From assembly GCA_965221125.1 (NCBI GenBank), contig CBDCRW010000004.1, positions 928,001 through 992,000 of the forward strand: a stretch of 64,000 nucleotides of DNA, given 5' to 3'. Shown piece after piece: positions 15,189 through 52,446 of the stretch. The notes under the pieces are model-generated. The model saw only the letters and a list, made by a program, of their open reading frames with translations. It was not told where the DNA came from and searched no databases. The translations under genes and the position numbers were made by a program. The stretch is from Alphaproteobacteria bacterium. Its GTDB lineage: Bacteria > Pseudomonadota > Alphaproteobacteria > UBA828. Within the stretch, counting starts at the first letter, position 1. Every line of letters starts with the position of its first letter.

Positions 15189-16010
15189 GCCGAGACGGCC
15201 GGCCTGAGACGATGCGCCCGGCGTCGAAACACGAATCGCGTGCTGAGGGGATGGGAACGTGTGCGCGCCCTTCAGCCTCCGTTTCTCGTCACGGTCATGG
15301 TCTGCGCACCTCCCTGGCGTTCGATCAGCTGCCCGCCTGTCCCTCCCTGCGGGTCGAGCAGCGCCGCGCAGACCATGACCGTGGCGAGAGGCGCGGAGTC
15401 ACATCACGAATGCGGGGACGAACGGTCCGAACGTCCCCGTTGGGTTCGGCAACGACGGCAGCGCGGATTCCCGCCCAGCCGGTTCGGGAAAGCAATGTTG
15501 GGCCGATGGAGGACGGCCGGGCGGCTACCCTTGCCCGAAGCGGCAGGCGTTCGGGGGTGGGCCCGCGCCGCTCGCAGCCAAGGCGGAACGGCACGTTTCG
15601 GTCGAGGTCTGGTCGGCCGCGCGCGTGCCGTCCGCCCGGCTGCCACTGAGCACGCAACCCTCCACCTCATTTTCCAGCACACGCGTGGGCTCGCGGGCGA
15701 GCGCCCGGCGCCTGAGGGATTAGAACCCCGGGCCGCAGGCCCGGACGGCGCGACCGCGCCGCGCGCCGAATGGCGCGTAGACTTGCGAGTATATGTATCT
15801 TTAAGTGTATGCGAGAGGACATAGAAGGACATTATATGAGCTTTGACAGTAGCTTGTCGGAATTATGCGTAGCTTTTCCCTTTTGCGAGACGACATAAGA
15901 TAACATTCAGTGCCTTTCACGTGTTGAGCAATGTGTTGACAGATCGACAGCCACATGGTCAAATCCCCCCATGAACACGAGTAACTCTTCGGTCCTCGGG
16001 TGATGGAGGG

Positions 16011-17399
16011 ATGATGGCGCCAGGCAAAGATGGCTGTGATCCTTGCAGATGGCCGGCTTCACGGTCGGTTCCGTCGCCTCCGTCATCGTCATCACCCGAC
16101 AACCGAAGGCTTTCGAACACGAAGCCCGGAAAACGCATCGCCAAGACCAAGATTACCATCAACAAGCGTGCCGTCGAGGCCCTCAAGCCCGGCGACAAGC
16201 CCTGGATCGCGTGGGACGACAGGCTCACAGGCTTCGGCGTCAGGGTGCACCCCACCGGCGCCAAGTCCTTCATCGTCAACTACCGTGCCGGTGACGGCGG
16301 CAGGAAGGCGCCGAACAAGCAGGTCGTGCTCGGTCGATATGGCAAGATCGCGCCCGGTCAGGCTAGGCGCTTGGCCCAGACCACCCTCGGCAAAGTGGCC
16401 AGCGGCGAGGACCCGGCTGAGGAACGTTCGCAGGCGCGAGGGATGCCGACCCTGGCGGATGCGCTCAAGGATTACCTGGGTGCCAATCCCAACCGCTCCG
16501 AGAGCACCAACAGGCTCTACCGCTACGAGGCCGAGCGCTATCTCGGCGACTGGCTCGGCCGCCCACTCGATTCCATCACGCGGCGCGAGGTGGAGGCGCG
16601 CTTCAACCGCATTACCGTGGACCACGGCTGGTCGCCGGCCAACCACGCGATGTCCCTGCTGCGTTCGGTCTACCGCCGTCCCTGCGTCGATCTCGAAGGT
16701 CTGCGCAACCCGGTCGACCTCTGGCTTGGCGCAGGCGGGAAGTTCCATCGCAAGACGCGACGCAAGATCTCCACGCCCGCCGAGGTGCTGCCCTGCTGGC
16801 GAACCGGCATCGAGGCCGAGGTCAAGATGCCGGCCATGAGTGACGCACTGTGGTTCGGGCTCTACACCGGCATGCGGCTGAGAGAAGTCCTGACACTGCG
16901 CTGGGAGAGAGTGGACATGGCGTCCCTCACCTTCCGCGTCGAGCAGACCAAGACCGGCGTCCCTCTCGAGCTTCCGATCACGCGGCAACTGGAACTCATC
17001 CTCGAGAGGCGCCGGGCGGCGAGGGCGGCGATGCCGGTCACCGTGCGGGACTGGGTGTTCCCTTCACCGGCCAGCAAGTCCGGGCATGTCGAGGACCCGC
17101 ACTATCTGTACCCGCGCATCACGAAGACGGGCGGTGCGAAGTTTTGGTTCCATGCGTTCCGTAACTGCTTCATCACGGTGGCCGAACGGGACTTGATGCT
17201 TCCCTCGCCGTTGACCAAGCGCCTTGTGAACCACGCCAGACCCAACGACGTGACGGAGGGCTACGCTGCGGACTGGACGATCGCCCAGCTGCGCGAGCCA
17301 GCTCAGAGGGTTGCCGATCGGATAGAAGCACTGATGAGCCATTTGCCGGAGGACACCGCCGAACAGGATGGGATTCCAGTCGGCGCCGGGGCTGGCTGA
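16011..17399 (+). CDS. tyrosine integrase with N-terminal arm-binding (DUF4102-like) domain
   Basis: WDDRLTGFGVRV...GAKSFIVNYR; catalytic residues R (TGMR), K (TKTG), HAFR, NH, Y (TEGY). Confidence 0.9.
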   Translation: MMAPGKDGCDPCRWPASRSVPSPPSSSSPDNRRLSNTKPGKRIAKTKITINKRAVEALKPGDKPWIAWDDRLTGFGVRVHPTGAKSFIVNYRAGDGGRKAPNKQVVLGRYGKIAPGQARRLAQTTLGKVASGEDPAEERSQARGMPTLADALKDYLGANPNRSESTNRLYRYEAERYLGDWLGRPLDSITRREVEARFNRITVDHGWSPANHAMSLLRSVYRRPCVDLEGLRNPVDLWLGAGGKFHRKTRRKISTPAEVLPCWRTGIEAEVKMPAMSDALWFGLYTGMRLREVLTLRWERVDMASLTFRVEQTKTGVPLELPITRQLELILERRRAARAAMPVTVRDWVFPSPASKSGHVEDPHYLYPRITKTGGAKFWFHAFRNCFITVAERDLMLPSPLTKRLVNHARPNDVTEGYAADWTIAQLREPAQRVADRIEALMSHLPEDTAEQDGIPVGAGAG

Positions 17400-17445: not shown

Positions 17446-18898
17446 GATCGTGTCCCGAGGAGTGGTGTAAGAGCGTCGCGCTTTACGCGGCATCCGGCGG
17501 GTAGGGCCGGGTTATTCAGGCTGCCACAGCGGACAGCTTGATCGTGGGATTGTCGCTCAGGGGAGCGATCGATTCCAGCGTCATGTACCTCCTTCCGACG
17601 GTCCATTCGTCGTTCTGCTCGAGCAGCACGGCGCCGACGAGGCGGGTGATGGCGTCCTCGTTGGGGAAGATGCCGACGACGTTGGTGCGTCGCTTGATCT
17701 CGCCGTTGACGCGTTCGAGCGGGTTGGTCGAGTGAAGCTTGACCCGGTGCTCCTTGGGGAAGCTCATGTAGGCGAGGACGTCGTGCTGGGCCTCGTCCAT
17801 GAGGGCCGCCAGCTTGGAGGCCTTGGGCCTGAGCTGGTCGGCGATCAGGCGCCACTGGGCGGCAGCGGCCTCGGCATCGTCCTGGGCGAAGGCGGTGGCG
17901 ACGAAGGCGGAGACGACGCGCCGGCCCTGCTTGCCGGCATGGGCCAGCAGGTTGCGCATGAAGTGGACGCGGCATCTCTGCCAGGTGGCGCCGAGGATCC
18001 GGGTGGTGGCGGCCTTCAGGCCCTTGTGGTCGTCGGAGATCACCAGCTGCACGCCGCGCAGGCCGCGCCTGGTCAGCGAGCGCAGGAACTCGGTCCAGAA
18101 GGTCTCGGCCTCGGAGGCGCCGATCGCCATGCCGAGGATCTCGCGCCGGCCCTGGTCGTTGACCGCGACGGCCACGGTGACCGCGACCGGGACGATGCGC
18201 CCGGCCTCGCGCACCTTCACGTAAGTCGCATCCAGCCAGAGATAGGGCCAGTCGCCTTCGAGCGGGCGGTCGAGGAAGCTGCGGATCTTGTCGTCTATCT
18301 CCCCGCAAAGGCGCGAGACCTGGCTCTTCGATATCCCGCTCATGCCCATGGCCTGAACCAGTTCGTCGACCGAGCGGGTCGATACCCCCTGGATGTAGGC
18401 CTCCTGGATCACCGCCGTGAGCGCCTTCTCCGCCGTCCGTCGGGGCTCCAGGAAGCCGGGGAAGTAGCTCCCCTTCCTGAGCTTCGGAATCTTCAGGTCG
18501 ACCGTGCCGGCCCGGGTCTCCCAAGGCCGATCGCGGTAGCCGTTGCGCTGGTTGATCCGCTCCGGCGTCCGCGCGCCATGCTCGGCGCCGGTCAGGCCCT
18601 CGACTTCCAGCTCCATAAGGCGCTGCGCAGAGAAGGCGATCATCTCACGCAGCAGATCGGCGTCAGAGCTCTTCTCCAACAGCGTCCGCAGGGTAAGCTT
18701 GTCATCGGTCATCGTGGTTCTCCTTAGGCTCGGGTCGATTCGGATTCACCCAAACCCTAAACCGGAACCGCGATGGCCACCCCGCTGTGGATAACCGGCT
18801 TGGCGCCACCAGACTCGAGGGCGGTCGCGGCGCCAAGCCGGTTACCCACAGCTACCGGGGGTAGCGGGAGCTCCTACACCACGTCTGGGGACACAACC
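17446..18898 (-). mobile_element. IS256-family insertion sequence
   Basis: Imperfect IRs GATCGTGTCCCGAGGAGTGGTGTAAG / rc GGTTGTGTCCCCAGACGTGGTGTAGG; 8-bp TSD CCTCGCGG at 17438-17445 and 18899-18906. Confidence 0.95.
17516..18712 (-). CDS. IS256 family transposase
   Basis: [53 protein letters not shown] motifs. Confidence 0.95.
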
Positions 18899-32434: not shown

Positions 32435-32560
32435 ATCTTTCCCACCTGCCCCCGCCGATTCGGCGACGAGTGTCCCGGTCAGCCCGGCCGCGTGGCGAGG
32501 ATCGATTTCCGTGGAGGGAGTCGCTCCTCTCCCCATCCACGCATTCCCGGAGACCGTTTC

Positions 32561-35149
32561 ATGCACGACCCCGTCATCCGATCCATCCCGCTACACCGCC
32601 TGGAGCTCTCGCCCGCCAACGTCCGCAGGACCGAGGCCGGCAAGACCGCCTTCGCCGAGCTCAAGGCATCCATCGCCGCCCACGGCCTGATCAAGAACCT
32701 CGTGGCCCGCTCCATCGGTCCCGGCGAGGACGGCGGCGAGCGCTTCGCCGTCATCGCCGGAGCCCGGCGCCTGGCCGCGCTCAACGAGCTCGCCAGCAAG
32801 GGCACCATCGCTTCCGACTTCCCCGTGCCCTGCCGCGTCATCGAGAACGGCGTGAGCGACACCGAGATCTCGCTCGCCGAGAACGTGCTCCACGTCGCAA
32901 TGCACCCCGCAGACCAAGTCCAGGCCTTCGGCGCCCTGGCGCTCGCCGGCGCCACCGTCGCCGACATCGCCGCCCGCTTCGGCGTCTCCGAGCGCATCGT
33001 CGAGCAGCGCCTCCGCCTCGGCCACGCCGCGCCGGAGCTGCTCGACGCCTACCGGGAGAACGCCATCGACCTGGAGACGCTGAAGGCCTTCGCCGTCACC
33101 ACCGACACCGCGCGCCAGGTGGCGGTATGGGAGCAGGTCAGGGACCAGGGCTACCGACCCACCGGCTGGCAGATCAAGCGCATGCTCACCGAGGACCGCA
33201 TCCCCGCCGGCGCCGCGCTCGCCCGCTACGTCGGCATCGACGCCTACGAGGCGGCCGGGGGTCCGGTGTTGCGCGACCTCTTCGCCGACGAGCACGAGAA
33301 CGGCGTCTGGCTGGAGGACCCGGTGCTGCTGATGCAGCTCGCCATGGACCGGCTGAAGGTGGCGGCGGACGAGCTCGCGACGCGGTGGAAGTGGGCCGAA
33401 GCCCGTCTCGACGTCGAGTGGTCCGACCTCGCCCGCTTCGGGCGCGTGCGCCCCACGCCGGCCGAGCAGACCTGCGAGGAGCAGGCCGAGATCGAGCGGC
33501 TGCACACCCGACAGGGCGAGTTCGCCGAGTTGGACGACGACGAGTGGACCGAGACCCTGGCCGAGGAAGCCGAGGGCATCGACACCCGCCTCGCGGAGAT
33601 CGACGAGGCCATCAAGGCCCGCGCCGTCTTCAAGCCCGAGGATATCGCCATCGCCGGATGCATCGTCACAGTCGGCAACGACGGCACGCTGCAAGTCGTG
33701 CAGGGACTCGTGAAGCCCGAGGACATGCCGGCCGATCCCGACACCGCCACGTCGGACGCCGCCTCCCAGGACGGTGTCGGTCAGGACGACGGCCGACAGG
33801 TCGGCTCCGGCATCCAGTCCCCCGCCATCTCCGGCCCGGCCATGCCGCCCGCGCGGCCCGACCCGGATGCCGAGGCGCGCAAGGAGGCCGGTGTGGGTAT
33901 CGGTCTCGCCGAGGACCTCCGCGCTATCAGGACCACGCTGGTCAAGGCGCATCTCGCCGAGGACTTCGGGGCCGCCTTCGACCTCATGCTGTTCCAGATG
34001 GCACGCGCCGTGTTCACCCCAGGCTATCACGACCATGCGCTCGACATCGCCGTGCGCGAGACCCCGGACCGGCCGCCGCTCCGCGCCAACGACGACACGT
34101 TCCACGAGTCGAGCCCCGGCGAGGCCATGCTGGAAGATCGCTCCTCGCTCCCCTCCGACTGGCTGGAGATCGAGGACGGCGCGGAATCCTTCGCCGCGCT
34201 GAGGGCACTTGCCCCTAAGGACAAGAAGCGGCTGTTCGCCGCCTGCGTCGCGCGCACGCTCAAGGGCCAGCTCGCCTTCGAGGCCAATGCGCGGCCCGAG
34301 ACGGAAGCGACGGTGGCGCGGCTCGACATCGAGTTCGCGGACCACGTCCGGCCCGGCGCCGAAATGTTCTGGTCGCGCGTCCGCAAGGATCGGATGCTCA
34401 AGGTCGCCCGCGAGACCCTGGGCATCGAGTGGGCGCACACCCACCGCAAGGACAAGAAGGCGGCCCTCGCCACGGCAATGGAAACCGCCTTCGCCGCCGG
34501 AGACGCAGTGCCTCTGGGCGTCCCGAAAGAAGGACGCGCGGCTGCGCTGGCCTGGGTGCCGCCCGGCTTCGCCGCTTTCGACACAGGCCACGTCGACAGC
34601 GGCGACGCGGCGACGCCGGCCCAGGCCGAGGGCGCAGCGTCCGGTCAGACGGTGACAGAGCCCGCGCCCTGTGCGGCCGAGGCCGCCTCCGCGCAGGAGA
34701 CTTCACCTGTGGACGCGGAACCTTCGGACGACGCGCAGTCCGGTGGACAGCAGGAGGCCGCGGCGGAGCAGCCCGAACCGGACGCCGGCGGCGAGGCCCC
34801 CGAGAGCCGGGCGCTCGATACCGCCGATGCGGAACAGGCTGATCCGTCCGAACCGTCCAACGGGACCCCTGTGCCGGAGACCACCGGATCGCCCGGCGCA
34901 CCCGATGGGGAAACCGTCGCTCCTACCGGCCACGAGGCGATCGACGCCGTGAACGCCGTCCCCGTCGCGGGCGGCGGGCCCAGGGTGATCGTGAACACCG
35001 TGGGCTTCGAGAACGGAGATGACGGCGACGCCGATGCGTCCACCGAAGATGTCCCGCCCGCACCGCCTGTTCCCGGCAACGGCCACGATGCCGCCAGTGC
35101 GAGCGGCAGCGACGCGCTGGATATCCCCGCCTTCCTGCGCCGCACGTAG
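32561..35149 (+). CDS. ParB/RepB/Spo0J family protein with long acidic C-terminal extension
   Basis: PANVRR, L-x-ASI-x-x-HGL-x-x-NL, VIAGARRL, SLAEN...MHPADQ, HTH IAARFGVSERIV-x-QRLRL. Confidence 0.9.
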   Translation: MHDPVIRSIPLHRLELSPANVRRTEAGKTAFAELKASIAAHGLIKNLVARSIGPGEDGGERFAVIAGARRLAALNELASKGTIASDFPVPCRVIENGVSDTEISLAENVLHVAMHPADQVQAFGALALAGATVADIAARFGVSERIVEQRLRLGHAAPELLDAYRENAIDLETLKAFAVTTDTARQVAVWEQVRDQGYRPTGWQIKRMLTEDRIPAGAALARYVGIDAYEAAGGPVLRDLFADEHENGVWLEDPVLLMQLAMDRLKVAADELATRWKWAEARLDVEWSDLARFGRVRPTPAEQTCEEQAEIERLHTRQGEFAELDDDEWTETLAEEAEGIDTRLAEIDEAIKARAVFKPEDIAIAGCIVTVGNDGTLQVVQGLVKPEDMPADPDTATSDAASQDGVGQDDGRQVGSGIQSPAISGPAMPPARPDPDAEARKEAGVGIGLAEDLRAIRTTLVKAHLAEDFGAAFDLMLFQMARAVFTPGYHDHALDIAVRETPDRPPLRANDDTFHESSPGEAMLEDRSSLPSDWLEIEDGAESFAALRALAPKDKKRLFAACVARTLKGQLAFEANARPETEATVARLDIEFADHVRPGAEMFWSRVRKDRMLKVARETLGIEWAHTHRKDKKAALATAMETAFAAGDAVPLGVPKEGRAAALAWVPPGFAAFDTGHVDSGDAATPAQAEGAASGQTVTEPAPCAAEAASAQETSPVDAEPSDDAQSGGQQEAAAEQPEPDAGGEAPESRALDTADAEQADPSEPSNGTPVPETTGSPGAPDGETVAPTGHEAIDAVNAVPVAGGGPRVIVNTVGFENGDDGDADASTEDVPPAPPVPGNGHDAASASGSDALDIPAFLRRT

Positions 35150-35245: not shown

Positions 35246-37000
35246 ATGACCGATCCTTTCCACCTGCCCGCCACGATCCGGGCCCGCGTTCACGAAGGCG
35301 CCATCGACCGGGTCTCGAGATTCTTCAACGCCTCCGTCGCGGACGCGGCGGCGGAGCTGATCCAGAACTCACGCCGCAGCGGCGCCACGCGGCTCGACGT
35401 TTCCACCGAGGACGTGCCCGAGGGCGGCACCGTCGTCACCGTCACCGACGACGGTTTCGGCATCGCCGACCCGGCCGTCCTCCTCTCCTTCGGCGAGAGC
35501 GGCTGGGACGCCGCCACGGCAAAGCGCGAAGACCCCGCCGGCATGGGCGTCTATGCGCTGTCCAAGCGCGGCTGTGTCATCTCATCGCGGCCGGGCACCG
35601 CCGGGCGCGCACCCATGCCCGGCTGGCGCGTCGAACTTACGCCCGACTGCTTCATCGGAAAGCAGGAAGCCCGGATCGTTTCCTGCGAAGATGCACCCCT
35701 GCCCAGCGGCACCGCGATCTCCTTCCGCGCGGACCAGAGCAGTGAGGGCATCCGCGCCGCCTTCGGCGTCGCGGCGCGCCACTGCCCGCTGGCTGTGGCC
35801 ATCAACGGCGAGGCCGTCGAGCGCACGTCCTTCCTGGACGGCGCCCTCCACGTCGAGCGCTGGCAGGGACTCTCCTTCGGCGTCTTCGACAGCAGGTTCC
35901 CCGGCTTCAACAACTCCGACCTCAACTTCCACGGGCTCACGTTCTCCGTATGCCTGCCCACGATGGACACCATCGACGGCGGCACTTGGTCGGTGTGCGC
36001 CGACGTCGACGCGTGCCCCGAGCTGGAGCTGGTGCTCCCCGCCCGCCGCGAGGCGGTGCAGACGCCCTTCCTGGACGAGATGCGCAAGGCGGCCCGTATC
36101 GCCATCTACCGGGCCATGCGCCGCGCCGACCGCACGCCTGCGCTCTCCCACGCCCGCTTCACCGCGGCCCGGAAGGCGGGCATCGACATGCCCATCGCGC
36201 CTGCCGTCCTGCGTCCCTGGCACCCGGCCATCGCCGACATCGACGACTGGCGCGACACACCGAACCGTGAGCCGGTCCGCCCCGGCACCCTGGTCATGGC
36301 GGTCGATCCCGAGACCCAGGACCAGCAGTGCCTCTGGCGGGCAGCGGAACGGGCAGGGATCGCCGGCCGCCTGTTCGAGGCCGACACGCGCCTGGAGGGC
36401 TACGCCTGGTACGACGCGCTGGCGCGGGTGGAGAGCGTGCGCATCGACGTCACCGAGGCGGACGTCACCCAATCGCTCGATGCCCTGCGCGGCACGGACG
36501 GGTCTTCTTCGCCGGATACCGTCACGGCGCCGGGCCTGCCGGACACGCTGGCGCGGCCCGAGGCCATCAACATTCACCTTGACGTGGTGCACAGGGACGG
36601 GCCGCCCGAGACCATCGCCATCCCCGCCGACGTCGCCTTCATCGGCGAGGAGGGGACCTGGGTCGAGGATGCGTATCCGCTCGTTACCAGGGACAGCGAC
36701 CTGCAGCCCCCGGCACTCTGCCAGCTCCTGCAGGCGGCGTATTTCTCGGTCTCCGACGACCCGGACGCGGACAGCCACGACACCCAGCGCCGCCGCTTTC
36801 GCGAGGACGCGACGCACATGGCGATCAAGCTGCTCGCCACGGAGGACGAAGCCAGGAAGCACACCATCGCGGAAGCCGTCTGGCGCGAGATCTTCTGGGT
36901 GATGCCGCGCGACCGCGAGGTCTCCATCAAGGTCAGCGGCGGCAAGGTCGCGGTGGAATTAGGGCCCGAGACCCCGGCGCCGGAGGGGGTGGCGGCATGA
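35246..37000 (+). CDS. GHKL (HATPase_c) ATP-binding protein
   Basis: ELIQNSRRSGA, VTDDGFGI, GESGW, PAGMG, GT motifs. Confidence 0.8.
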   Translation: MTDPFHLPATIRARVHEGAIDRVSRFFNASVADAAAELIQNSRRSGATRLDVSTEDVPEGGTVVTVTDDGFGIADPAVLLSFGESGWDAATAKREDPAGMGVYALSKRGCVISSRPGTAGRAPMPGWRVELTPDCFIGKQEARIVSCEDAPLPSGTAISFRADQSSEGIRAAFGVAARHCPLAVAINGEAVERTSFLDGALHVERWQGLSFGVFDSRFPGFNNSDLNFHGLTFSVCLPTMDTIDGGTWSVCADVDACPELELVLPARREAVQTPFLDEMRKAARIAIYRAMRRADRTPALSHARFTAARKAGIDMPIAPAVLRPWHPAIADIDDWRDTPNREPVRPGTLVMAVDPETQDQQCLWRAAERAGIAGRLFEADTRLEGYAWYDALARVESVRIDVTEADVTQSLDALRGTDGSSSPDTVTAPGLPDTLARPEAINIHLDVVHRDGPPETIAIPADVAFIGEEGTWVEDAYPLVTRDSDLQPPALCQLLQAAYFSVSDDPDADSHDTQRRRFREDATHMAIKLLATEDEARKHTIAEAVWREIFWVMPRDREVSIKVSGGKVAVELGPETPAPEGVAA

Positions 37001-39419: not shown

Positions 39420-41584
39420 ATGCTCGACGCCCACCCGGCGCCGGATGCCCCCGCGCGTCCGCCCGCCCCCGTCCCCGCCATTGCCGAAGCCGCCGAACCG
39501 CAGCCCCCCTCCGCGCCTGCCGCGCTGCTGACCGCGGCCCGCACCATACTCCCGGTCCTGGAGACCGGTTGGGCGCTGGATGCCCGCACGATGCGCGAGG
39601 CGATGACCTCCGCTTTCGGCGCCTCCGACACGGACGGCGCCTGGATCTGGAAGGATTCCTACGAGGCGGCCGAGGCGGCGCTGGTGCTCTTCCTCCAGCG
39701 CTACGGCCGCGCCATGCGGCGCGAGGCCGGTGCAGGTCCGGCCGGACCCACCGCCATGCTGCGCATGCTGGAGATCCTGGCGGCCCTGGAGCCCTCGCAG
39801 ACCAGGCGCTCAGAGGAGCAGCTCAGGTATCAGCAGTTCTCGACGCCGCTGCCCCTGGCCTACGCGGCGCTGCAGGCCGCCATGATCCGGCCCGGCGACG
39901 TCGTGCTCGAACCCTCGGCCGGCACCGGCATGCTGGCCGTCATGGCGCAGCTTGCGCTCGGCAACGGAGCCGCCGGCGCGCTTCACCTCAACGAGATCAC
40001 CGCCACGCGCGCGGGCCTTCTCGCGGGCCTCTTCCCCGGCTGCACCGTCACCCGCCACAACGCCGAGTCCATCAGGGACCGGCTGCCCGAGCTGCGGCCC
40101 ACCGTGGTGCTGATGAACCCGCCCTTCTCGGCCAGCCCCGGCGTGGACCGCATTCGCCATCACGTCGATCTGCATCACATCCGCTCGGCCGTCTCGATGC
40201 TGCCGCCGGGCGGGCGGCTGGTGGCAATTTCTTCCTCGCACTGCGTCCCCGGCGATACCGCGTGGGCGGATGCCTTCGCATCGCTCGACCCGCCGGCCCA
40301 TGCGGTGTTCACCGCCCCCATCCACGGCCGCGCCTACGCACGGCGCGGCACCACCTTCGACACCCGCCTCACCGTCCTCGATCGGGGAGGCGAGAAGCCC
40401 GCGCGGGTCTATGCCGGCCACCCCGTGCGCGACGCCGGCCACCTGTTGCAGGCGGTCACCGGCACCGTGCCGGCGCGGCGCCCCATCGAGCCGGTGCCGG
40501 GCGCGGATCTATTCGGTCAGGCGCCGGCGCCGTCGAGACGGCCCCGGCCCACGCGAGCGAAACGGACCCGGACCGCCCCGGAAGAGGCGCGGCCCCACGA
40601 CTGGGGGGTTGTGTCCGAACTTGCCTACCAGGCGGTGCCGGCCGGCGCCGGTTCCGCCGGGGCCGCGCAGCCCTCCGGTCCCTACGCACGATGGCAAGCA
40701 TCCGGCATCCACGTGCCGGGCGCGGTCGAGCACCCGACGCCGCTGGTGCAGTCCGGCGCCATGGCGGCGGTGGCGCATCCCATGCCGTCCTACCGCCCCA
40801 TGCTGCCCGAGAAAGTGGTGGCCGAGGGGCTGCTGTCCGACGCCCAGCTCGAGAGCGCGGTCCTCGCCGGCCAGGCGCACGAGTGCCATCTCGCCGCCGA
40901 GTACCGCATCGGTGCCGGCTGGGAGACGGTGCAGCGCGTCGACGTCGACGCCGACGGCGACAGCGATGAATCCGCTTCCGCCTCCGAAGACGACGGCAAG
41001 ACCGTCGACCCCGACGAGCCGCTGTCCGAACCGGTCCGCTTTCGGCGCGGCTGGATGCTGGGCGACGGCACCGGATGCGGCAAGGGCAGGCAGGTCGCCG
41101 CCATCGTCCTCGACCAGTGGCTCCGAGGCCGGAAGCGGGCGCTCTGGCTCTCCCAGTCCGACAAGCTGCTGGAGGACGCGCGCCGGGACTGGTGCGCCGT
41201 CGGCGGGCGCGCCGAAGACGTCATCCCCCTCGGCAAGGTCCGCCAGGGGGCCGACATCCCGCATGCCCAAGGCATCCTGTTCGCCACCTATGCCACGCTG
41301 CGCTCCCCCGCCCGGCAGGGCAAGCCCTCGCGCCTCGACCAGATCGTGGCCTGGCTCGCGGACGGCGACGGCGAGCAAAAGCGCCACGCATACCAGGGCG
41401 TCATCGTCTTCGACGAAGCGCACGCGATGGCCAACGCGGCGGGGTCGAAGGGCTCGCGCGGCGAGGTGAAGCCCTCGCAGCAGGGACGTGCGGGCCTGCG
41501 GCTGCAGAACGCGCTGCCCGATGCCCGTATCCTCTACGTCTCCGCCACCGGGGCCACCACCGTCCCCGGCCTCGCCTACGCGCG
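39420..41584 (+). pseudogene. strawberry-notch family methylase/helicase, 5' part (interrupted)
   Basis: QQFSTP, VLEPSAGTG, MNPPFS (amino-MTase); LSDAQLE, GDGTGCGKGR, FDEAH, YVSATG (SF2-like). Interrupted at GLAYA/R. Confidence 0.9.
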
Positions 41585-41599
41585 AGAGTACGCTTCATA

Positions 41600-43675
41600 C
41601 TACACCTCATCTATTCCTGTGGGGGCAAGGTTGCAGCTCGGTTTGCGCAGAGACAGCTTTCGCCCCGGTTGTTTGGTCGGCGGAGGGTCGGGAATCTCGT
41701 ACAAGTAGTCGGATCCGCCGGTGTAGGCGTGTCCGCGCAAGAGCCCGGCCTTGCGCCATTGGTTGACTGTGCCGACGGAGACCGCGAGGCGCTCGGCGGC
41801 CTCGTTGACCGTCAACAGCCCGCGATCGCGCAGCCGTTCATAGCGTGGCTTGAGAGCGTAGTTCGCTCGCAGCACCCCCACCAACTTCGGGGTAAAGGCG
41901 TGGCCGTAACCGCTTCGGTATCCGCGCTCGTTGAGGATTTTGGCGATCTCGCCATAGTTGTGGTCGTTCAACAGGCTGTCGACCTCGGCGACGATCTCGG
42001 CCTTGGTCTTGAAGGTCTCACATCCGAGAGGATCCGGCGCCCAGGTGAGCTGGCGGGTCGCGCCGCCGCGCAGACGCACCCCCAGGCTCCGCGTGGCCCT
42101 GGTCAGCGTCACGTCCTCGATCAGCAGCCGCGCCATCCGCTTGCGCTCGCGGTGCGGCGTCGCAGGATCGTTCCACAGGCGGGGGAAGTCGCTGGCCAGC
42201 GCGAGGATTCGCTTGCGTTGCCCTTCGTCCAACCCCTGGCCCGGATCCGCGCGGCTGCGCTCGAGCTCTCGCTGCGCCTCGTCCAGCGTCCGAAGCTTCG
42301 CGTTCCACTCCGCCTCCAGCACGTCGGCTACTATCCGGTTGTCGGGATGGGTCTGCATGAACCTCTGCCGCGCCAGGTCCGCTTCCTCGCGGGCGCGCTG
42401 CACTCGCTGAGCGCGCCACAGATCGGCCTCCTCGGCGCGCGCGGTGAGTTCGTCCTGCACCTGCAACGCCACCTCCAGCGTCAACGGCGTCATCAGCTCC
42501 ACCAGCAACTCGCCGACCGCGCGGTCGATGGCAGCGCCGGGGATGCTCTGACACCAGGCGCTCGCCGTCTGCGCACCTTCATGGCTGCACAGGTAGTAGG
42601 GGTGCAGCTCCTTTGATTTTTGCTTGTAGTAGCGCACCCCCATGCTCCGGCCGCACACGCCGCAGACAGCCAGTCCCTGCAGCAGTGCCGGCCCCTCGCG
42701 TGGGGGAGGGCGGCGCTCCGCGCCGCGCGCTCGGGCAGCATTGTTGTCGCGAAGCTGGCTCTCGTTCTGTTCGAACCGCTCCCAGGTGATGTAGCCCGGG
42801 TGCGCATCGCGCAGCTCCACCATCCATTCCTCACGTGGCAGACGTTGGGTCTCGACACCGCCGCCGGGACGCCGCCGGCTGCGGCTGCGCCCGTACGCGT
42901 AAGCGCCGGCGTATCGCGGATTGCGCAGCACTCGCAGTGCCCGCGCGAACCTCAGCGGCTTCCAATGCAGCTCGCCCTTGTGCGGCCCGTGGAGAGGACG
43001 GTAGGGGAAAAGCAGGTTCTCGGCCCTGAAATACTTGACCGTGGCATTAGCCGAGCCGAGCCGGGTGAAGGTATCGAAGAACAGGCGCAGGCTATGCTGC
43101 ACTTGTTCGTCGGGGTCGAGCACCACGTTGCCGAGCGGGTCATAGACCAGTCCCACCGGCAGCGGCAACTTCAACTCCCCACGCTTGGCCGCGTTCAGCG
43201 TCCCACCGCGCAGCCGGGCGCGCATCATGTGCAGCTCCGCTTCCGACATGGTCCCTTTGAGCCCGAGCAGGAGCCTGTCGTTGAAGTCTCCTGGATTGTA
43301 GAGGCCGTCCTCGTCGAGGATCAGCGTCTCGCTCAGGTCACAGATCTCGACCAGCCGATGCCACTCGGTGGAATTGCGCGCGAGCCTTGACACCTCGAGC
43401 CCGAGCACGATCCCGGCCCGGCCCAAGCTGACGTCGGCGACCAGACGCTGGAAGCCTTCGCGGTCCTTGTCGGCGCCGGACAGGCCCTGATCGCAATCGA
43501 TCACGACGACGTTCTCGGTCGGCCAGCCCAGGGCCACGGCCCGCTCGCGCAGCGCGTACTGGCGGCGCGTGCTCTCGCCATGTTCGAACACCTGGCGCAC
43601 GGTGGACTGACGCACGTACAGGTAAGCATCGCGGCTCAGGTGGTTCGCGCTCACCTTCTGATAGGCAGTGCTCAT
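41600..43675 (-). CDS. large serine recombinase (resolvase + recombinase + Zn ribbon + HTH)
   Basis: AYLYVRQST, D-x-GLSG, EVSRLARN, GTMSEAEL, LLQGLAVCGVCG, terminal HTH. Confidence 0.95.
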   Translation of the reverse strand: MSTAYQKVSANHLSRDAYLYVRQSTVRQVFEHGESTRRQYALRERAVALGWPTENVVVIDCDQGLSGADKDREGFQRLVADVSLGRAGIVLGLEVSRLARNSTEWHRLVEICDLSETLILDEDGLYNPGDFNDRLLLGLKGTMSEAELHMMRARLRGGTLNAAKRGELKLPLPVGLVYDPLGNVVLDPDEQVQHSLRLFFDTFTRLGSANATVKYFRAENLLFPYRPLHGPHKGELHWKPLRFARALRVLRNPRYAGAYAYGRSRSRRRPGGGVETQRLPREEWMVELRDAHPGYITWERFEQNESQLRDNNAARARGAERRPPPREGPALLQGLAVCGVCGRSMGVRYYKQKSKELHPYYLCSHEGAQTASAWCQSIPGAAIDRAVGELLVELMTPLTLEVALQVQDELTARAEEADLWRAQRVQRAREEADLARQRFMQTHPDNRIVADVLEAEWNAKLRTLDEAQRELERSRADPGQGLDEGQRKRILALASDFPRLWNDPATPHRERKRMARLLIEDVTLTRATRSLGVRLRGGATRQLTWAPDPLGCETFKTKAEIVAEVDSLLNDHNYGEIAKILNERGYRSGYGHAFTPKLVGVLRANYALKPRYERLRDRGLLTVNEAAERLAVSVGTVNQWRKAGLLRGHAYTGGSDYLYEIPDPPPTKQPGRKLSLRKPSCNLAPTGIDEV

Positions 43676-43974
43676 GCCAACTCTCCTTCCATATGGCCCT
43701 TGAGCATCGCGAGAAGAATGTCGATCAGCGACTTCTCGACCCCGCCGGGCAGCGGCTCGGTCGAGGCGCCGGCGCAAACGGCGGCCGGCGGGGCGGGCAA
43801 CTCGGCCACGGCGTGCAGCCAGGCCGCGACGCCGCGCAACGCCACCACGGCAAGCCCGTGACGGTTGTGCTCTGTGCCGGGCTCGACCGCATGACGGCGC
43901 AGCCGCTCGTAGCCGTCCCCATAGGCGGAATGTTCCAGCGGGAGCAGCCCGGCGAGCGGCGGCCGGCACTTCAT
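43672..43974 (-). CDS. hypothetical protein of the LSR element
   Basis: YERLR...GLAVVALRGVAAW; ATGA-coupled on both sides. Confidence 0.7.
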   Translation of the reverse strand: MKCRPPLAGLLPLEHSAYGDGYERLRRHAVEPGTEHNRHGLAVVALRGVAAWLHAVAELPAPPAAVCAGASTEPLPGGVEKSLIDILLAMLKGHMEGELA

Positions 43975-44432
43975 CGGCTTTTTTTTACCTGCGCGAGCAT
44001 GCGGCCGATGCTGCGGCGATGGATGGTGATGCCAAAGCGCGCGCGCACCAGATCGACCAGCGCGGCGGCGGTCAACTCCGGCTGTTCGCTCTTCGCCGCG
44101 AGCAGCGCCTCGACCACCTCGTCGCTGAGCTTGTGGCGTCGGCGGGGTCCCGGCTTCTCCGGCAGCAGGCCCGGCAGCCCGCCCGCATCGTAGGCGCGCT
44201 GCGCCTGGTACCAGGTGGGCCGCGAGACGCCGAAGCTGGCCGCGGCGTGGCTCACCGGCACGCCGTCCTCGCGCACACGGCGCAGCATCTCGTACCTGAC
44301 CTGGACCAGGTCGCGCGGGTCGAAGAACGCGTTGGACAGGAACAGCTCGTCGCGCACCGTCTCCGCGTTCGGGTTGAGGCAGCCGTGCTCCTTGAGGGAG
44401 CGGGTCTTGGCGTCGGCGGGGCGTCTGGCCAT
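43971..44432 (-). CDS. HTH domain protein of the LSR element
   Basis: FFDPRDLVQVRYEMLR...AAASFGVSRPTWYQ...GLPGLLPEKPGPR...IHRRSIGR. Confidence 0.85.
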   Translation of the reverse strand: MARRPADAKTRSLKEHGCLNPNAETVRDELFLSNAFFDPRDLVQVRYEMLRRVREDGVPVSHAAASFGVSRPTWYQAQRAYDAGGLPGLLPEKPGPRRRHKLSDEVVEALLAAKSEQPELTAAALVDLVRARFGITIHRRSIGRMLAQVKKSR

Positions 44433-44614
44433 TGCGTGGGCTCCGGCGGCGGAGGAATGTAAGTATATTTATGCACACCCCTGGCATCGCATCAAACCCT
44501 TTCTTGCCCCATATCGACGAAAACAGGCCGAAATACCGTGTATATTGGTCGATCATGACCGCCCTTCCAGTCCATACGACAACCTCCGACCGCCAGGTAT
44601 GGACAAAAACGCTC

Positions 44615-44923
44615 TTACACATGCGGCAAAATCTCCTTGACACCGCTCGCGCCGCCGGCCGCCTCCTTTCCAACCCTCTCGCCGCCGCCCAAGCCATCCA
44701 GCAACGCCGACAACGTCAGCAGATCCGAGACACGGAACGCCGACCGGCCCGCCGCTACCCGCGCAAACGGATCCACCGCTGCAACGCTGGTAAAAGCCTG
44801 ACGAATCGTGCGCAGCGTCCCGTCGTCAGCCGTGTAATGGACCAGCCCCACCCCAAGCATCGACGTGGTCTCGATCAGTTCGAACTCACGTCCGAGAAGA
44901 GGATGAAACGGGTGCGTCACCAC
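44615..44923 (-). CDS. DUF5372-like protein (5' end apparently supplied by the other element end)
   Basis: VTHPFHPL-x-G...DPF...GRSAFRVSDL; frame stays open to the element end at 44975. Confidence 0.75.
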   Translation of the reverse strand: MVTHPFHPLLGREFELIETTSMLGVGLVHYTADDGTLRTIRQAFTSVAAVDPFARVAAGRSAFRVSDLLTLSALLDGLGGGERVGKEAAGGASGVKEILPHV

Positions 44924-44975
44924 AAAGCGTTGCTGCTCAACGCATGAACGACGTGCAGTTGAAAGCCTGGTGCCG

Positions 44976-47331
44976 GCGCCTCGGACTCTGGGCCTCCGGC
45001 GAGACCCCCTTCGAGACCCGAACGGCCTTCGTCGCCGCCATGGAGGCCGGCGGCGTGGCGGCGATGGAGGTGGTGGCCCGCGACCTCAAGGCTTTGGGTC
45101 TCTACCAGGCCCGGGCCTTGAGCTACGACGGAGTCGAGGTCGACATCCTGGAACATCCGCTCACGCCGGAGCAGCGGCGCATCTACGACTCCTATGCGGG
45201 CGCCTTCAAGATCATCCACGCCAACATCCAGGATGCGCTGAAGGCGACCGGCATCGTCGACGGAGAGGCCACCCTCAACAAGAACGCCAAGTCCGCCGCG
45301 ATTTCGGCCTTCGAGGGCGCCAAGCAGCGCTTCTTCGGCCATCTGCTGACCTCCATGAAGTGCCCCTCGCTGATCCGCGCCATCGAGGCGGACCTCGACG
45401 GCGGACGGTCGGCGGTGGTGCAGCTGGTCTCCACCGGCGAGGCGCTGATGGAGCGGCGCATCGCGGAGATACCGGCCTCCGAGTGGGACGACCTCTCCAT
45501 CGACCTGACGCCCCGCGAGTACGTGCTCGACTTTCTCGAGCACGCCTTTCCGGTGCAGCTGCAGGAGCCCTTCGAGGACGATGACGGCAACCTCATGTCG
45601 CGCCCCGTCTTCGATGCCGACAACAACCCGGTGCTATGCCAGGAAGCCCTGGCCAAGCGCGACGCCCTGATCCAGAAGCTCGGCGCTCTGCCGCCGGTGC
45701 AGTCGGCGCTGGACCAGATCGTTCACCGCTTCGGGCACGACGCCGTGGCCGAGATCACCGGGCGTTCGCGCCGGGTGCTGAGGATCGAGGACGCGAAGGG
45801 CGAGCGCCTCGCGCTCCGATCGCGGCCCGCCTCCGCGAACTTGGCCGAGACCGCCGCCTTCATGGACGGGAGCAAGAAGATCCTGGTGTTCTCGATGGCG
45901 GGCGGCATCGGGCGCAGCTACCACGCCGATCTCGGCTGTCCCAATACCGAGCGCCGCATCCACTACTTGCTGGAGCCCGGATGGCGGGCCGACCAGGCGA
46001 TCCAGGGGTTGGGCCGGACCCATCGCACGCACCAAGCGTTCGCGCCGCTCTTCCGTCCCGTCGCCACCGACGTGAAGGGCGAGCGCAGGTTCATCGCCAC
46101 CATCGCGCGCAGGCTGGACAGCCTGGGCGCCATCACGCGGGGACAACGGGATTCCCAGACCGCCATGGGGGGCGACGACACCGCGCTGTTCAGGGCCAGC
46201 GACAACCTGGAGAGCCTCTACGCCAAGTCGGCGCTCAGGCAGTTCTACATCGCGCTTTGGCGGGGCCACATCGCGGGCTGGTCACTCAAGGACTTCGAGG
46301 AGGCCACCGGGCTCAAGCTCACTTACGAGGGCAACCTCAAGGAGGACCTGCCGCCCATGCCGCAGTTCCTCAACCGCCTGCTGGCGCTTCCCATCGACGA
46401 GCAGAACCAGCTCTTCGCCGCGCTCGAGACCCGGATCGAGGCCAACATCGAGATCGCCATCGAGGCCGGCACCTTCGAGCGCGGCGTCGAGACCATCGTT
46501 GCCGACTCTCTCTCGGTCGCCAGCCGCGAGTCCGTCTTCACCCACGACGGCTCCGGCGCCGAGACCGAGATCGTCGAGATCGCGCGCAAGGACCGGCTGG
46601 AGCCTCTCGCCGCCGATGCCGCCATCGAGCTCCACGCGACCACCTCCAGCAACCCGCCGCTTCTCATCGTCAACGCCCAGTCGAAGCGTGCGGCGCTGGT
46701 CATGGACGCGCCCGCGCGCACGCTCGACGACGGGGACGTGCAGGAGCGCGTGCGCCTGGTGCGTCCCGCCGCCCGAGAGACCATGGCCAGGGCGGCGCTG
46801 GAGGCCTCGCAGTGGCGCGCCGCCGGCGAGCACCGCTGGCGGGCCCTCTGGGACGCGGAGATCGCGGGCCTGCCGGCGCACCGCGAGTCCCGCTTCTGGC
46901 TGGTCGCCGGCCTGCTGCTGCCGATCTGGGATCGCCTGCCCGAAGAGAGCATGCGGGTCCGCCGCCTCGTCTGCGACGACGGCGAGCACCTGATCGGCCG
47001 CGTGCTCGGTCCCGCCGAGGTCACCCAGTTTCGTGCCGCGCTCGGTCTCGACGGCGGCCCCGGCCTCACCGCCGCCGAGGTCCACGACGAGATCATGAAA
47101 TGCGGCGCTTCCTTCCATCTCTCCAATGGCTGGAAGCTCGCGCGCCGCCGCCTGATGGGGGCCAACCGTATCGAGATCGTGGGCCCCACGGACGGCGATA
47201 CCGACGCGCTCAAGCGCATGGGCTGCATCGCCGAGATCGTCTCGTGGCGCACCCGACTGTTCGCGCCCGACCGCGAAACCCTGGAGCGCATCGTGGACCG
47301 CTGGTCCATCGCGGCGCCCGAGACGTCCTGA
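44976..47331 (+). pseudogene. strawberry-notch family protein, 3' part (helicase C-terminal domain)
   Basis: RLGLW...GGVAAMEVVARDLKALGLY, AEITGR, GWRADQAIQGLGRTHR, IARRLDSLGAITRGQR. Rejoined gene would be 1506 aa. Confidence 0.9.
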
Positions 47332-50254: not shown

Positions 50255-51505
50255 ATGTTCGAAGAACTCTTCTCAGTTCCTCACGTCATCGAGAGATACC
50301 GCGTAGCAGCACTTGTCGAAGACCGGCTGCGATATCTCCAGCATCTAAAGGACACAGGTTCCGGTCGAAGAACCTTGAGGGACAACGCAATCAACCAACT
50401 CAGCTTGGTGCGCCTTCTCGATTTGAAAGATGGCGATAGAGTAAGTGTCCGCGAAGTCGAGCTCGCGGCAGCGAAGTGGTCGCAACCGGGAGGGCGTAGA
50501 TGGAAACGGGCCGCTTCATCCAAGAGCAAGTCAAGGTTTACGCATCACGCGCTCCAATGGTTACGTTTTCTTGGCGCGCTCGACGAACCCGATAACGTGC
50601 GTCATCCCTATGGTGACGAGGTTGCGGTATATCAGCAGTGGATGCGCGAAGAGCGCGGATTGTCCGAACAGACAATCCGCACCCAACTATTCAACGTCAA
50701 GATCTTCTTCGATTGGTTGGCGGTCAGTGAAACACCACTAGCTTCTGTTAAGGTGACCGATATCGACTCTGCCATTGCGGCGAGGCATGCTCAGGGAACC
50801 TGCAATCGAAGGACGATACACGACTACGCCCGACATCTAAAAAGCTTCATTCGTTTCGCCGAGGACCGTAGCTGGTGCAGGCCAGGAATGGCCAAGGGCA
50901 TAAGGCCACTAAGGATGTATCCCGACGAGACAGTGCCGAAAGGGATTAGTCGAACAAATGTCCTGCGCTTGCTGGAGACCACCGAAGGTAACCGGCCAGT
51001 TGACAAGCGCGACCGCGCTATTCTGATGCTGTTGATCGCCTACGGGTTGCGGGCTGGTGAAGTTAGTGCCCTACGCCTCGATGACCTTGACTGGGAAAAG
51101 GAGACCTTGACGGTCCGGCGTTCGAAGTCGGGGCGAACAAATCTCTATCCCCTTTCCCGAGGCGTCGGACAAGCGACCCTCCGCTACATCCTCGAGGTCC
51201 GTCCCAAGCGTCCTGAACGCACCCTCTTCTTCACCCTTGTAGCCCCTATTCGACCGGTCACCCCGGGGGCGTTGTGGGAAATCGTCAGCAAACGTTTAGG
51301 GAGCCTGGGTATTGTAACTGGACCCCGGGGACCGCACGCTCTGCGGCATGCGGCGGCCCAGCATCTTCTTGACCAAGGCATGTCGATGAAGGTGATTGGA
51401 GATTTTCTGGGACACCGTGACCCTGACTCCACCGCAACCTACGCCAAAGTGAATCTTTCCGCCCTTCGGGAAGTGGCTGACTTCGACTTGGAGGGCCTGG
51501 CATGA
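50255..51505 (+). CDS. RIT tyrosine recombinase A
   Basis: YGLRAGE, SKSG, HALRH, LGH, TATYAKV. Confidence 0.9.
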   Translation: MFEELFSVPHVIERYRVAALVEDRLRYLQHLKDTGSGRRTLRDNAINQLSLVRLLDLKDGDRVSVREVELAAAKWSQPGGRRWKRAASSKSKSRFTHHALQWLRFLGALDEPDNVRHPYGDEVAVYQQWMREERGLSEQTIRTQLFNVKIFFDWLAVSETPLASVKVTDIDSAIAARHAQGTCNRRTIHDYARHLKSFIRFAEDRSWCRPGMAKGIRPLRMYPDETVPKGISRTNVLRLLETTEGNRPVDKRDRAILMLLIAYGLRAGEVSALRLDDLDWEKETLTVRRSKSGRTNLYPLSRGVGQATLRYILEVRPKRPERTLFFTLVAPIRPVTPGALWEIVSKRLGSLGIVTGPRGPHALRHAAAQHLLDQGMSMKVIGDFLGHRDPDSTATYAKVNLSALREVADFDLEGLA

Positions 51506-52446
51506 AACTTCGGGACGCAATCTCTCAGTACATCGAATGGCGACGAGTCCACGGCGCCAAGTTCGAAACCGGTGCCATCACCCTCAACCTGTTTCTAAGG
51601 AGCGTCAATGCGGACATTGACTGTGACGCTGTCACGCGGGCGCAGATCTGCGCATTCCTTGCGGGCGATGGCCGACTTACCCGAAATCGGGAGAACAAGT
51701 ACGGCGCGCTAAATGGATTTTATCAGTTTGCGACTAGCCGCGGATACGCAAGTTCTTCGCCGCTGCCGGACAACGAACCGAGACCTCCAAAGTCAGCACG
51801 GTCTTACATCTTCTCTCGCGATGAGATTCGGCGCATGTTCGACGCTATAGAGTTTAGCCGGCGACATGCGCTGCAGTTAGATGCGGATACCTTCCGCACT
51901 CTGCTTCTGCTTCTTTACGGAACCGGTCTAAGGGGCCAGGAGGCCCGGAAGCTCACGGTGGCGGACGTTGACTTGTCGGCTGCAGTGCTCACCGTGCGTA
52001 ACACTAAGTTCTTCAAGAACCGCTTAGTACCAGTCGGACCGCAACTCAACGGTGCGTTGAAAACATATGCGGTGAAGCGTGCAACTCGATCGTTCCCGCA
52101 GGGGAGAGATTCCGCCTTTCTGGCAAATCGGGACGGAACGCCGCTGCATAAAGATACGATACAGTGCGCCTTTGCCGGGCTGCTTCGCACAGCAGGGATA
52201 CAGGGAACGGACGGTACATGCCGACCTCCGTGCCTTCATGCCTTCAGGCACACCTTCGCCGTACACAGGCTGACAGAGTGGTATCGGAAGGGCGCGGATG
52301 TGCAGCGGCTGTTGCCGTATCTCTCCACTTATCTCGGCCATTCAGAGCTGGCCTACACCCAAGTCTATCTTCCAATGACGCCGGAGCTTCTGCATGAAGC
52401 GGCGCTCCGCTTGGAACGCTATCTGCGGGGAGGGAACGATGAATAA
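51502..52446 (+). CDS. RIT tyrosine recombinase B
   Basis: GTGLR, TKFFKNR, HAFRHTFAV, LSTYLGH, TQVYL. Confidence 0.9.
   Translation: MKLRDAISQYIEWRRVHGAKFETGAITLNLFLRSVNADIDCDAVTRAQICAFLAGDGRLTRNRENKYGALNGFYQFATSRGYASSSPLPDNEPRPPKSARSYIFSRDEIRRMFDAIEFSRRHALQLDADTFRTLLLLLYGTGLRGQEARKLTVADVDLSAAVLTVRNTKFFKNRLVPVGPQLNGALKTYAVKRATRSFPQGRDSAFLANRDGTPLHKDTIQCAFAGLLRTAGIQGTDGTCRPPCLHAFRHTFAVHRLTEWYRKGADVQRLLPYLSTYLGHSELAYTQVYLPMTPELLHEAALRLERYLRGGNDE

Follow-up and report, generated by a model that had tools for sequence, protein, structure and literature searches.

At the end of FtsZ, a tubulin-like GTPase, a disordered linker is followed by a short conserved peptide. In Escherichia coli this tail reads DYLDIPAFLRKQAD383, and one study names ZipA, FtsA, MinC, ZapD, ClpX and SlmA as its partners (PMC4117426), in agreement with what the original prediction on the present DNA had said of the tail and its binders. 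Two of its residues, I374 and L378, are described as critical for partner binding, and F377 for ZipA, the partners for which critical residues are reported being ZipA, FtsA, MinC and SlmA (PMC8669495, PMC4117426). A precedent for avidity is given by SlmA, which binds the FtsZ tail while on DNA, and does so at 81 µM for the tail peptide and at 0.21 µM for full-length FtsZ (PMC4117426). The stretch of DNA analysed here, referred to as the window (G000:C4:928001-992000, 64,000 nucleotides of an alphaproteobacterial genome), encodes a ParB-like protein of an integrated element, and this protein ends in a peptide of the FtsZ kind. The best explanation of its features is a ParB-fold DNA clamp, similar to the ParB2 proteins of establishment or leading regions, that additionally bears a module like the C-terminus of FtsZ, consisting of an acidic spacer of about 180 amino acids (aa) with an FtsZ peptide at its tip.

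Other described systems come close to single aspects of this protein. The ParB2 of plasmid pED208, encoded in the leading region within an ssb-parB2-psiB-psiA cluster, passes through the F-type conjugation channel and is presented without an assigned function (PMC8406263). In ICEclc, ParA-Shi arrests division in transfer-competent cells, and BisD is a ParB-like CTP clamp (PMC6812849, PMC12409273). The likeness lies in par-family genes of integrative elements that have been put to a new use, whether in stopping host division or as a clamp that slides on DNA and bears an additional domain; ICEclc differs in that Shi/ParA or the BisD activator domain is involved, and the abstracts of these papers mention no FtsZ-tail copy. 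Noc, a ParB paralogue, is the best structural match to the N-terminal 210 residues and shares with the present protein the concept of a DNA-bound multivalent protein that meets the division apparatus. Noc uses a membrane-targeting N-terminus. SlmA binds the FtsZ tail, whereas the present ParB carries it, and the protein is a member of neither the Noc nor the SlmA family. Since ParB carries the very tail that SlmA binds, it would address the partners of FtsZ rather than FtsZ. Literature searches for the peptide string, and for an FtsZ tail mimic or decoy in connection with ParB, conjugative elements or phages, yielded no account of a ParB or other mobile-element protein that bears a copy of the FtsZ tail, and the papers found for the peptide string concern FtsZ itself; nor was a published description found in these searches of a ParB2-like family member with an added FtsZ-type linker-and-peptide module.

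The protein is laid out along the forward strand of the window in the following way.

32561..35149, + strand: gene of the ParB-like protein (P0001), 862 aa, with its ATG at 32561
32561..33190, + strand: ParB N-terminal (CTPase-type) domain and helix-turn-helix, residues ~1-210, from Pfam, Foldseek and invariant columns
33191..34579, + strand: family-specific folded body, residues ~211-673, up to a W-x-PPGF landmark; predicted local distance difference test (pLDDT) score mostly above 90, column identity 0.86-0.89
34580..35113, + strand: disordered acidic linker, residues 674-851; pLDDT below 50, net charge -33
34913..35005, + strand: linker island 1, residues 785-815 (...HEAIDAVNAVPVAGGGPRVIVNTVG); mean column identity 0.85, gap-free
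35051..35092, + strand: linker island 2, residues 831-844 (PP-x-PGNGHD); mean column identity 0.81, G841 invariant
35114..35146, + strand: FtsZ-type C-terminal peptide ALDIPAFLRRT, residues 852-862, from the translation of the open reading frame (ORF) and the homologue alignment

An upstream GTG at 32492 is an alternative start that adds 23 aa (ORF 32492-35149, + strand). The C-terminal end of the 862-aa protein is ...DALDIPAFLRRT, also recorded as ...SGSDALDIPAFLRRT and as ...GNGHDAASASGSDALDIPAFLRRT, each directly before the stop codon at 35147-35149, and LDIPAFLR lies at 35117-35140, exactly where it had been predicted to be. The AlphaFold2 model, built from a 45-sequence alignment whose rows were picked for bearing tails, has a mean pLDDT of 78.6 and is of high confidence for residues 1-673; pLDDT then falls below 50 for residues 674-854, before a four-residue helix at 858-861. 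Composition, charge and model confidence therefore bear out the arrangement of a ParB body, a long acidic disordered linker and a C-terminal peptide. Residues 676-851 (176 aa) of the linker consist of 20% A, 12.5% G, 12.5% P, 10% D and 10% E, with a net charge of -33. The original prediction of an acidic, Ala/Pro/Glu/Asp-rich stretch of about 170 aa was thus right as to acidity, and has to be amended as to uniformly low complexity by the presence of the two conserved islands. Outside of them, the linker is gapped and has a mean column identity of 0.51-0.58 in 43 homologues; the distance from the landmark to the motif amounts to 114-192 aa in 42 of these 43. Island 1 has the consensus ...EAIDAVNAVP-x-AGGGPRVIV-x-TVG, and both islands, which may be additional docking motifs, occur in the more distant type-2 relatives described below as well. 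By eye, island 1 resembled the final strand in the core of FtsZ, but an alignment to the FtsZ of a congener did not bear this out, and this candidate was dropped.

The correspondence between the tail and FtsZ of the host genus is close. The complete end of same-genus FtsZ was read in 11 of 12 genomes, and all have PL[DE]IPAFLRRQAN before the stop. In a BLASTP comparison of ParB residues 676-862 with congener FtsZ, D-x-LDIPAFLRR alone aligns, with 10 of 11 residues identical. LDIPAFLRR has the core of the FtsZ motif class (acidic-I/V-P-x-F-L-R/K-R/K), the equivalents of I374, F377 and L378 being present and conserved, and it has the location of that class, at the extreme C-terminus after a disordered linker, with the stop one residue past RR. 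The two proteins also share the similar length of the spacer and the same invariant positions. Unlike in FtsZ, the peptide sits on a DNA-binding ParB fold rather than on a tubulin-like GTPase, the residues that follow RR in FtsZ are missing, and the linker is strongly acidic, with two conserved islands. At the DNA level, the nine codons that the ParB tail shares with ftsZ differ at eight of nine third positions, so that the identity is held at the level of protein, and nothing points to ftsZ DNA having been transferred recently. Recent capture of the tail from ftsZ was accordingly rejected as an origin, the 11-mer being all that aligns and its codons being different. Throughout the genus two codon sets separate both classes of genes, ATT-CCG-GCG-TTT in ftsZ and ATC-CCC-GCC-TTC in ParB genes. 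As for the host, its ftsZ (C6:921096-922749) is frameshifted behind the GTPase core and runs into the end of the contig; the assembly lacks the GC-rich long linker and the tail, probably as an artefact of assembly.

In the genomes of the genus the peptide is exclusive to FtsZ and the ParB family. A six-frame translation of the 4.58-Mb host genome contains the pattern [DE][ILVM]P[AST]F[LIMV][RK] twice, each time at the end of a copy of ParB, and a genome-wide look revealed no FtsZ-type end elsewhere in the assembly. DNA coding for [DE]IPAFLRR was found 33 times on both strands of 17 genus genomes, as compared with 0 for a reversed-pattern control. Thirty of these 33 loci were read, and they comprise 14 FtsZ ends, 16 ParB-family ends and no others; one of the three unread loci is inside the FtsZ locus of genome G008 by its coordinates, and two have the ParB-type codon pattern, which makes them candidate ParB ends.

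The tail is under purifying selection. The original prediction had envisaged that DIPAFLR would be kept in homologues despite divergence of the linker, and this is what the alignments revealed. The set of close homologues comprised the query and 120 listed matches, which have 69-94% identity and in most cases align over 100% of the length, out of at least 2807 homologues. Of these 121 listed sequences, 118 have retained the tail, 114 having [DE][ILV]PAFLR in the last 20 residues and four more having G/A/V-IPAFLRR, while the remaining three have unrelated ends that are frameshifted in appearance. P856, A857, F858, L859, R860 and R861 are invariant in the 43 aligned homologues, where the mean column identity of the tail is 0.91 versus 0.51-0.58 for the linker. 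Related genomic loci have a tail in 50 of 58 cases, namely 19 of the PAFLR type (type 1, as here) and 31 of a second type (type 2, [DE][IV]P[EG]FLRRV[HQ]); the eight exceptions include two that run off the contig, three that are truncated or frame-broken, and three short forms from Haliea (31% identity). Throughout the close set and the related loci, the residue preceding P is I, V or L, the one following it is a free x position, and P, F, L and R are fixed. A metagenome-assembled genome (MAG) labelled Dehalococcoidia has three 57%-identical ParB copies with the tail PLDVPAFLRRS on one 442-kb contig, although its FtsZ end is different; either the gene has spread across phyla, or binning or labelling went wrong.

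The N-terminal part of the protein has the fold of the ParB/Srx superfamily, with its N-domain and GxxR patch. When the first ~210 residues of the model were searched by Foldseek, the best match was Noc (7nfu, E 2.7e-9), followed by ParB (7bnk, 6sdk and 1vz0) and KorB (8qa9), with E values ranging from 2.7e-9 to 5.7e-6; the arginine patch G67/R69/R70 (G-x-R-R) is invariant in the 43 homologues. On the basis of fold and arginine patch, the protein is predicted to bind and hydrolyze CTP and to close as a clamp on DNA. Profile matches are below the curated cut-offs, both in Pfam, with ParB_N at the N-terminus (E 3.7e-5; 24.1 bits versus a cut-off of 26.3 bits) and HTH_ParB (E 0.0019), and in NCBIfam, with PRTRC ParB, plasmid partitioning protein, Noc and parB_part, the last reaching 29.7 bits versus a cut-off of 58.45 bits. 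No Pfam or PDB match extends past the N-terminal part into the folded residues ~211-673 (~460 aa).

The family is large: a search at E <= 0.001 gathers 9993 cluster representatives, and the plasmid records that match number at least 5000, of which 3852 are typed as conjugative and 2510 are from Escherichia. On an IncFIA plasmid of E. coli, a homologue that aligns with residues 8-381 (34.9% identity, E 1e-38) is encoded between ssb/DUF905 and psiB-psiA, which is the position of parB2, and by homology the present protein is assigned to the leading-region ParB2 family of conjugative plasmids. Like the IncF/IncI ParB2 proteins, it has no ParA partner: Pfam scans of 51 window ORFs revealed no ParA-type family, and thus not the adjacent ParA of a canonical ParABS system. 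Unlike for these proteins, ssb, psiB and psiA are not among the ORFs scanned, so that the ssb-parB2-psiB-psiA arrangement of a leading region next to oriT is not found, and the neighbours are instead DUF2201, a GHKL ATPase, DUF6573, RadC and a methylase-helicase. A further difference from this ParB is that the IncF protein, of 655 aa, has no acidic linker and no FtsZ-type tail.

Collectively, these data are read here as a ParB that acts as a multivalent mimic of an FtsZ filament and that docks the DNA of the element on FtsA, delays division, or does both. This reading, based on sequence comparison, is given a probability of about 55%, a figure that covers both effects, as either tethering or division delay could be the selected one. 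In this scheme, a ParB-type clamp would accumulate in many copies on the element DNA, and the resulting nucleoprotein complex would show many tails on long spacers, in the manner of an FtsZ filament. Such a multivalent display would confer high avidity for the receptors of the FtsZ tail; the conversion of the FtsZ tail into a multivalent ligand is reportedly the subject of one study. Tails that dock on membrane-bound FtsA, or on the divisome, would tether the element DNA, and docked tails would simultaneously compete with FtsZ for its anchor, which would delay division for as long as an element is active or has just arrived. The element would in this way probably plug its DNA-protein complex into the cell-division machinery via the tail. 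In support of such docking, the conserved positions P, F, L and R of the tail, with I, V or L before P, parallel the critical residues I374, F377 and L378 of FtsZ. FtsA is encoded in the host genome and is the only canonical receptor of the FtsZ tail found there, MinC, ZipA and ZapD having been searched for in this 92% complete genome and not found. FtsZ would be a further conceivable target, since in Bacillus the FtsZ tail is described as also binding the FtsZ core (PMC12747378). The predicted complex of host FtsA with ParB residues 823-862 scored 0.28 and 0.30 versus a mark of 0.32, without controls, and is neutral for binding. The idea of an FtsZ-tail mimic, put forward in the original prediction, hence stands at the level of sequence, where a copy of the FtsZ peptide is present on a disordered linker, and is partly supported overall.

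On conjugative plasmids and integrative elements, few genes are as widespread as those for the ParB2-like proteins of leading regions, to which no function is assigned (PMC8406263). For one large branch of the family, the conserved copy of the FtsZ docking peptide suggests a concrete hypothesis, in which these proteins would touch FtsA or the divisome directly. Should this hold, mobile DNA would mimic a short linear motif of a core bacterial cytoskeletal protein, and the establishment or transfer of an element would be linked to the control of host division by a route unlike that of known inhibitors, which act on FtsZ. It would also provide a natural multivalent competitor for the contact that FtsZ makes with its anchor, a site of interest for antibacterial design. 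A bolder extension can be put forward as tentative: condensates of ParB and DNA, with hundreds of peptides on FtsZ-like spacers, would be decoy "FtsZ filaments" by which an incoming or excised element seizes membrane-bound FtsA, thus forming a division checkpoint controlled by the element as well as a membrane anchor for its DNA until integration or transfer, and the hydrophobic-PAFL tails of the ParB2-like family would be a general plug-in of mobile DNA for the divisome.

The history of the module can be followed in the wider family. When 150 sequences representing clusters at 50% identity were compared, a W-x-PPGF-type landmark was seen in 107, and 53 of these have a long extension past it. 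A hydrophobic-P-x-F/W-hydrophobic motif is present within the last 45 residues in 44 of the 53 long forms, while the same pattern is absent from the remaining 34,637 residues of these proteins and, in shuffled tails, appears in a mean of 0.145 of 53 and a maximum of 2. The residues after the motif vary, being RR or otherwise basic in some sequences; in many others, T, Q, N, E or D comes next. The acidic linker and hydrophobic-PAFL tip are thus an old and optional module of the family, the full FtsZ-like RR form belonging to the branch studied here. In a distant alphaproteobacterial branch the end reads ...[DE]LPAFLTD, about 20 acidic residues and AAE at the stop, and some members have the AAE end alone; the AAE is conserved after the acidic run, with or without LPAFL or LPEFL 15-25 residues upstream (loci L033, L035, L037, L038, L041, L042, L044, L045, L048, L050, L052 and L054). 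A member on a Yoonia plasmid ends in ...SLPAFLSGDAA.

Several observations weigh against a ParB that mimics FtsZ filaments. Fifty-four of the 107 landmark-bearing representatives stop within 40 residues and so have no C-terminal extension, and the 655-aa IncF homologue has neither acidic linker nor motif, which indicates that the tail is dispensable for the core function of the family. Many tails of the wider family have no basic residues after F-L (for example LPAFL followed by T, Q, N or E), so that the motif in its ancestral form may serve a different partner. FtsZ ends were read in 33 genomes with a related ParB locus, and the ParB tail does not co-vary with them. In 28 of the 33, FtsZ ends in [DENS]IP[AS]FL[RK]..., and in five the end is different or unrecognisable (one Dehalococcoidia-labelled, one Vicinamibacteraceae-labelled, two gammaproteobacterial and one Thalassobaculaceae MAG). 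Type-1 ParB tails are found with hosts whose FtsZ ends in L[DE]IPAFLRRQAN, with D or E having no one-to-one match, and type-2 tails are constantly [DE][IV]PEFLRRV[HQ] while FtsZ of their hosts ends in IPAFLK[RQ]QAN, IPSFLRR.. or FPEFLRQQAN. Moreover, some ParB copies come from MAGs that carry the label Dehalococcoidia or Gammaproteobacteria and have different FtsZ ends. To this it must be added that the FtsZ end of the host is missing from its assembly, with congeners standing in, and that insertion sequences break up this copy of the element, which may be inactive. As type-2 tails are unchanged whatever the FtsZ end of the host, the tail is conserved in its own right, and selection rather than recent capture maintains it, given that host FtsZ variants are not tracked and that the codons are unlike those of ftsZ. 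The lack of tracking fits a mobile element that addresses a conserved receptor pocket, and provides no positive support for mimicry.

The same data bear on an alternative in which the hydrophobic-PAFL tail docks a partner outside of the divisome, either a protein of the element, such as the product of the adjacent GHKL ATPase gene, or a coupling protein that would recognise it as a transfer signal, with the likeness to FtsZ being secondary. This is unlikely, yet it would account for a motif that is older than its RR form, as seen from the many relatives with LPAFL and polar or acidic residues, for a tail that does not follow the FtsZ variants of the host, and for the presence of the GHKL gene beside ParB in two copies; the translocation of an IncF ParB2 through the conjugation channel, as described in the source, points in the same direction (PMC8406263). 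It leaves unexplained why the tail agrees with host-genus FtsZ at 10 of 11 residues, including the flanking L and RR, and why the linker and the C-terminal placement are FtsZ-like, and the IncF homologue of ParB2 type has no motif. The C-terminal transfer signals of VirB/D4-type substrates are Arg-rich and net-positive, whereas the linker and last 21 residues of ParB are net negative, its two terminal arginines standing alone behind a net charge of -33; nor are there conjugation genes among the 51 window ORFs scanned. The third of the consequences originally proposed, besides tethering and competition with FtsZ, was a degradation tag. On this view ParB would be delivered to ClpXP, or to some other FtsZ-recognising protease, so as to limit its lifetime. 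ClpX is indeed named among the binders of the E. coli FtsZ tail (PMC4117426), and two regions of FtsZ, one lying in its linker and the other at the C-terminal end, are reported to be important for recognition by ClpXP (PMC5256927). A tag of this kind is nonetheless improbable and the weakest of the three proposals, because the ParB tail stops one residue past RR, without the FtsZ residues that follow (QAN in the genus); type-2 tails end otherwise, in V[HQ], and a tag would not need a spacer of 114-192 aa.

A resemblance to SSB had been named at the outset as the finding that would speak against an FtsZ-type tail. An acidic run precedes the I-P-(A)-F core, and the family gene adjoins ssb in IncF plasmids, as would be expected of an SSB-type acidic tip that recruits enzymes of DNA metabolism to incoming DNA. 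SSB-type recognition requires the carboxylate of a terminal Phe, whereas Phe858 is followed by LRRT and lies five residues from the end, with 2-30 residues following in distant relatives, and P-A-F-L-R-R fits FtsZ and not SSB. As the Phe is not C-terminal, this alternative fails and is left with very little probability. There is, in the end, the reading of the FtsZ likeness as a functionless by-product of chance or composition. A loose pattern of seven residues is expected about once per genome by our estimate. Against this, 118 of the 121 close sequences and 50 of the 58 related loci have the tail despite a diverging linker, and control matches of 0 versus 33 and shuffles of 0.145 versus 44 of 53 speak likewise, so that the conservation data effectively refute chance and place it last.

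The neighbourhood, as annotated in the Pfam scans, contains the following features besides ParB.

15975-17399: P4-type integrase (Pfam)
17516-18745: Mutator-family transposase among RecD-like helicase fragments (Pfam)
In the window: DUF3150 and DUF2201 genes (Pfam)
35246..37000, + strand: GHKL-type ATPase gene downstream of ParB (Pfam HATPase_c_3, E 1.7e-5)
In the window, after the GHKL ATPase: DUF6573 and RadC genes (Pfam)
39420-41708 and 44794-47331: methylase/strawberry-notch-type helicase, a split gene (Pfam)
~41700-44800: insertion that splits the methylase/helicase, with a helix-turn-helix transposase-like gene
In the window: VapBC and a macro-domain protein (Pfam)
50255-53434: three consecutive tyrosine recombinases, forming a recombinase-trio insertion (Pfam)
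In the window: DUF7146-Toprim and a NikA-like protein (Pfam)

Genes for a conjugation apparatus or type IV secretion, a relaxase or ParA are not among the 51 ORFs scanned, and no tRNA is found in the window at the border of the element. By this gene content, the window contains the establishment-type module of an integrated element, partly disrupted by insertion sequences.

Two further copies of the family are present in the same genome. At C2:6902-7951 (L005) lies a 5'-truncated type-1 ParB of 349 aa that ends in DALDIPAFLRRT; relative to the window copy its linker has deletions and its tail is unaltered. Two integrase genes are found just upstream of it, and the same GHKL ATPase and a 165-aa gene downstream, so that the GHKL ATPase, kept by both ParB copies, may belong to the same module. 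On the minus strand of C4:669500-672364 (L026), an intact type-2 paralogue ends in ...MEIPEFLRRVQ (...NGHAAHPDPMEIPEFLRRVQ before the stop). With the copies in the window, on C2 and at C4:669500-672364, the genome thus holds at least three elements, or remnants of elements, of this ParB family.

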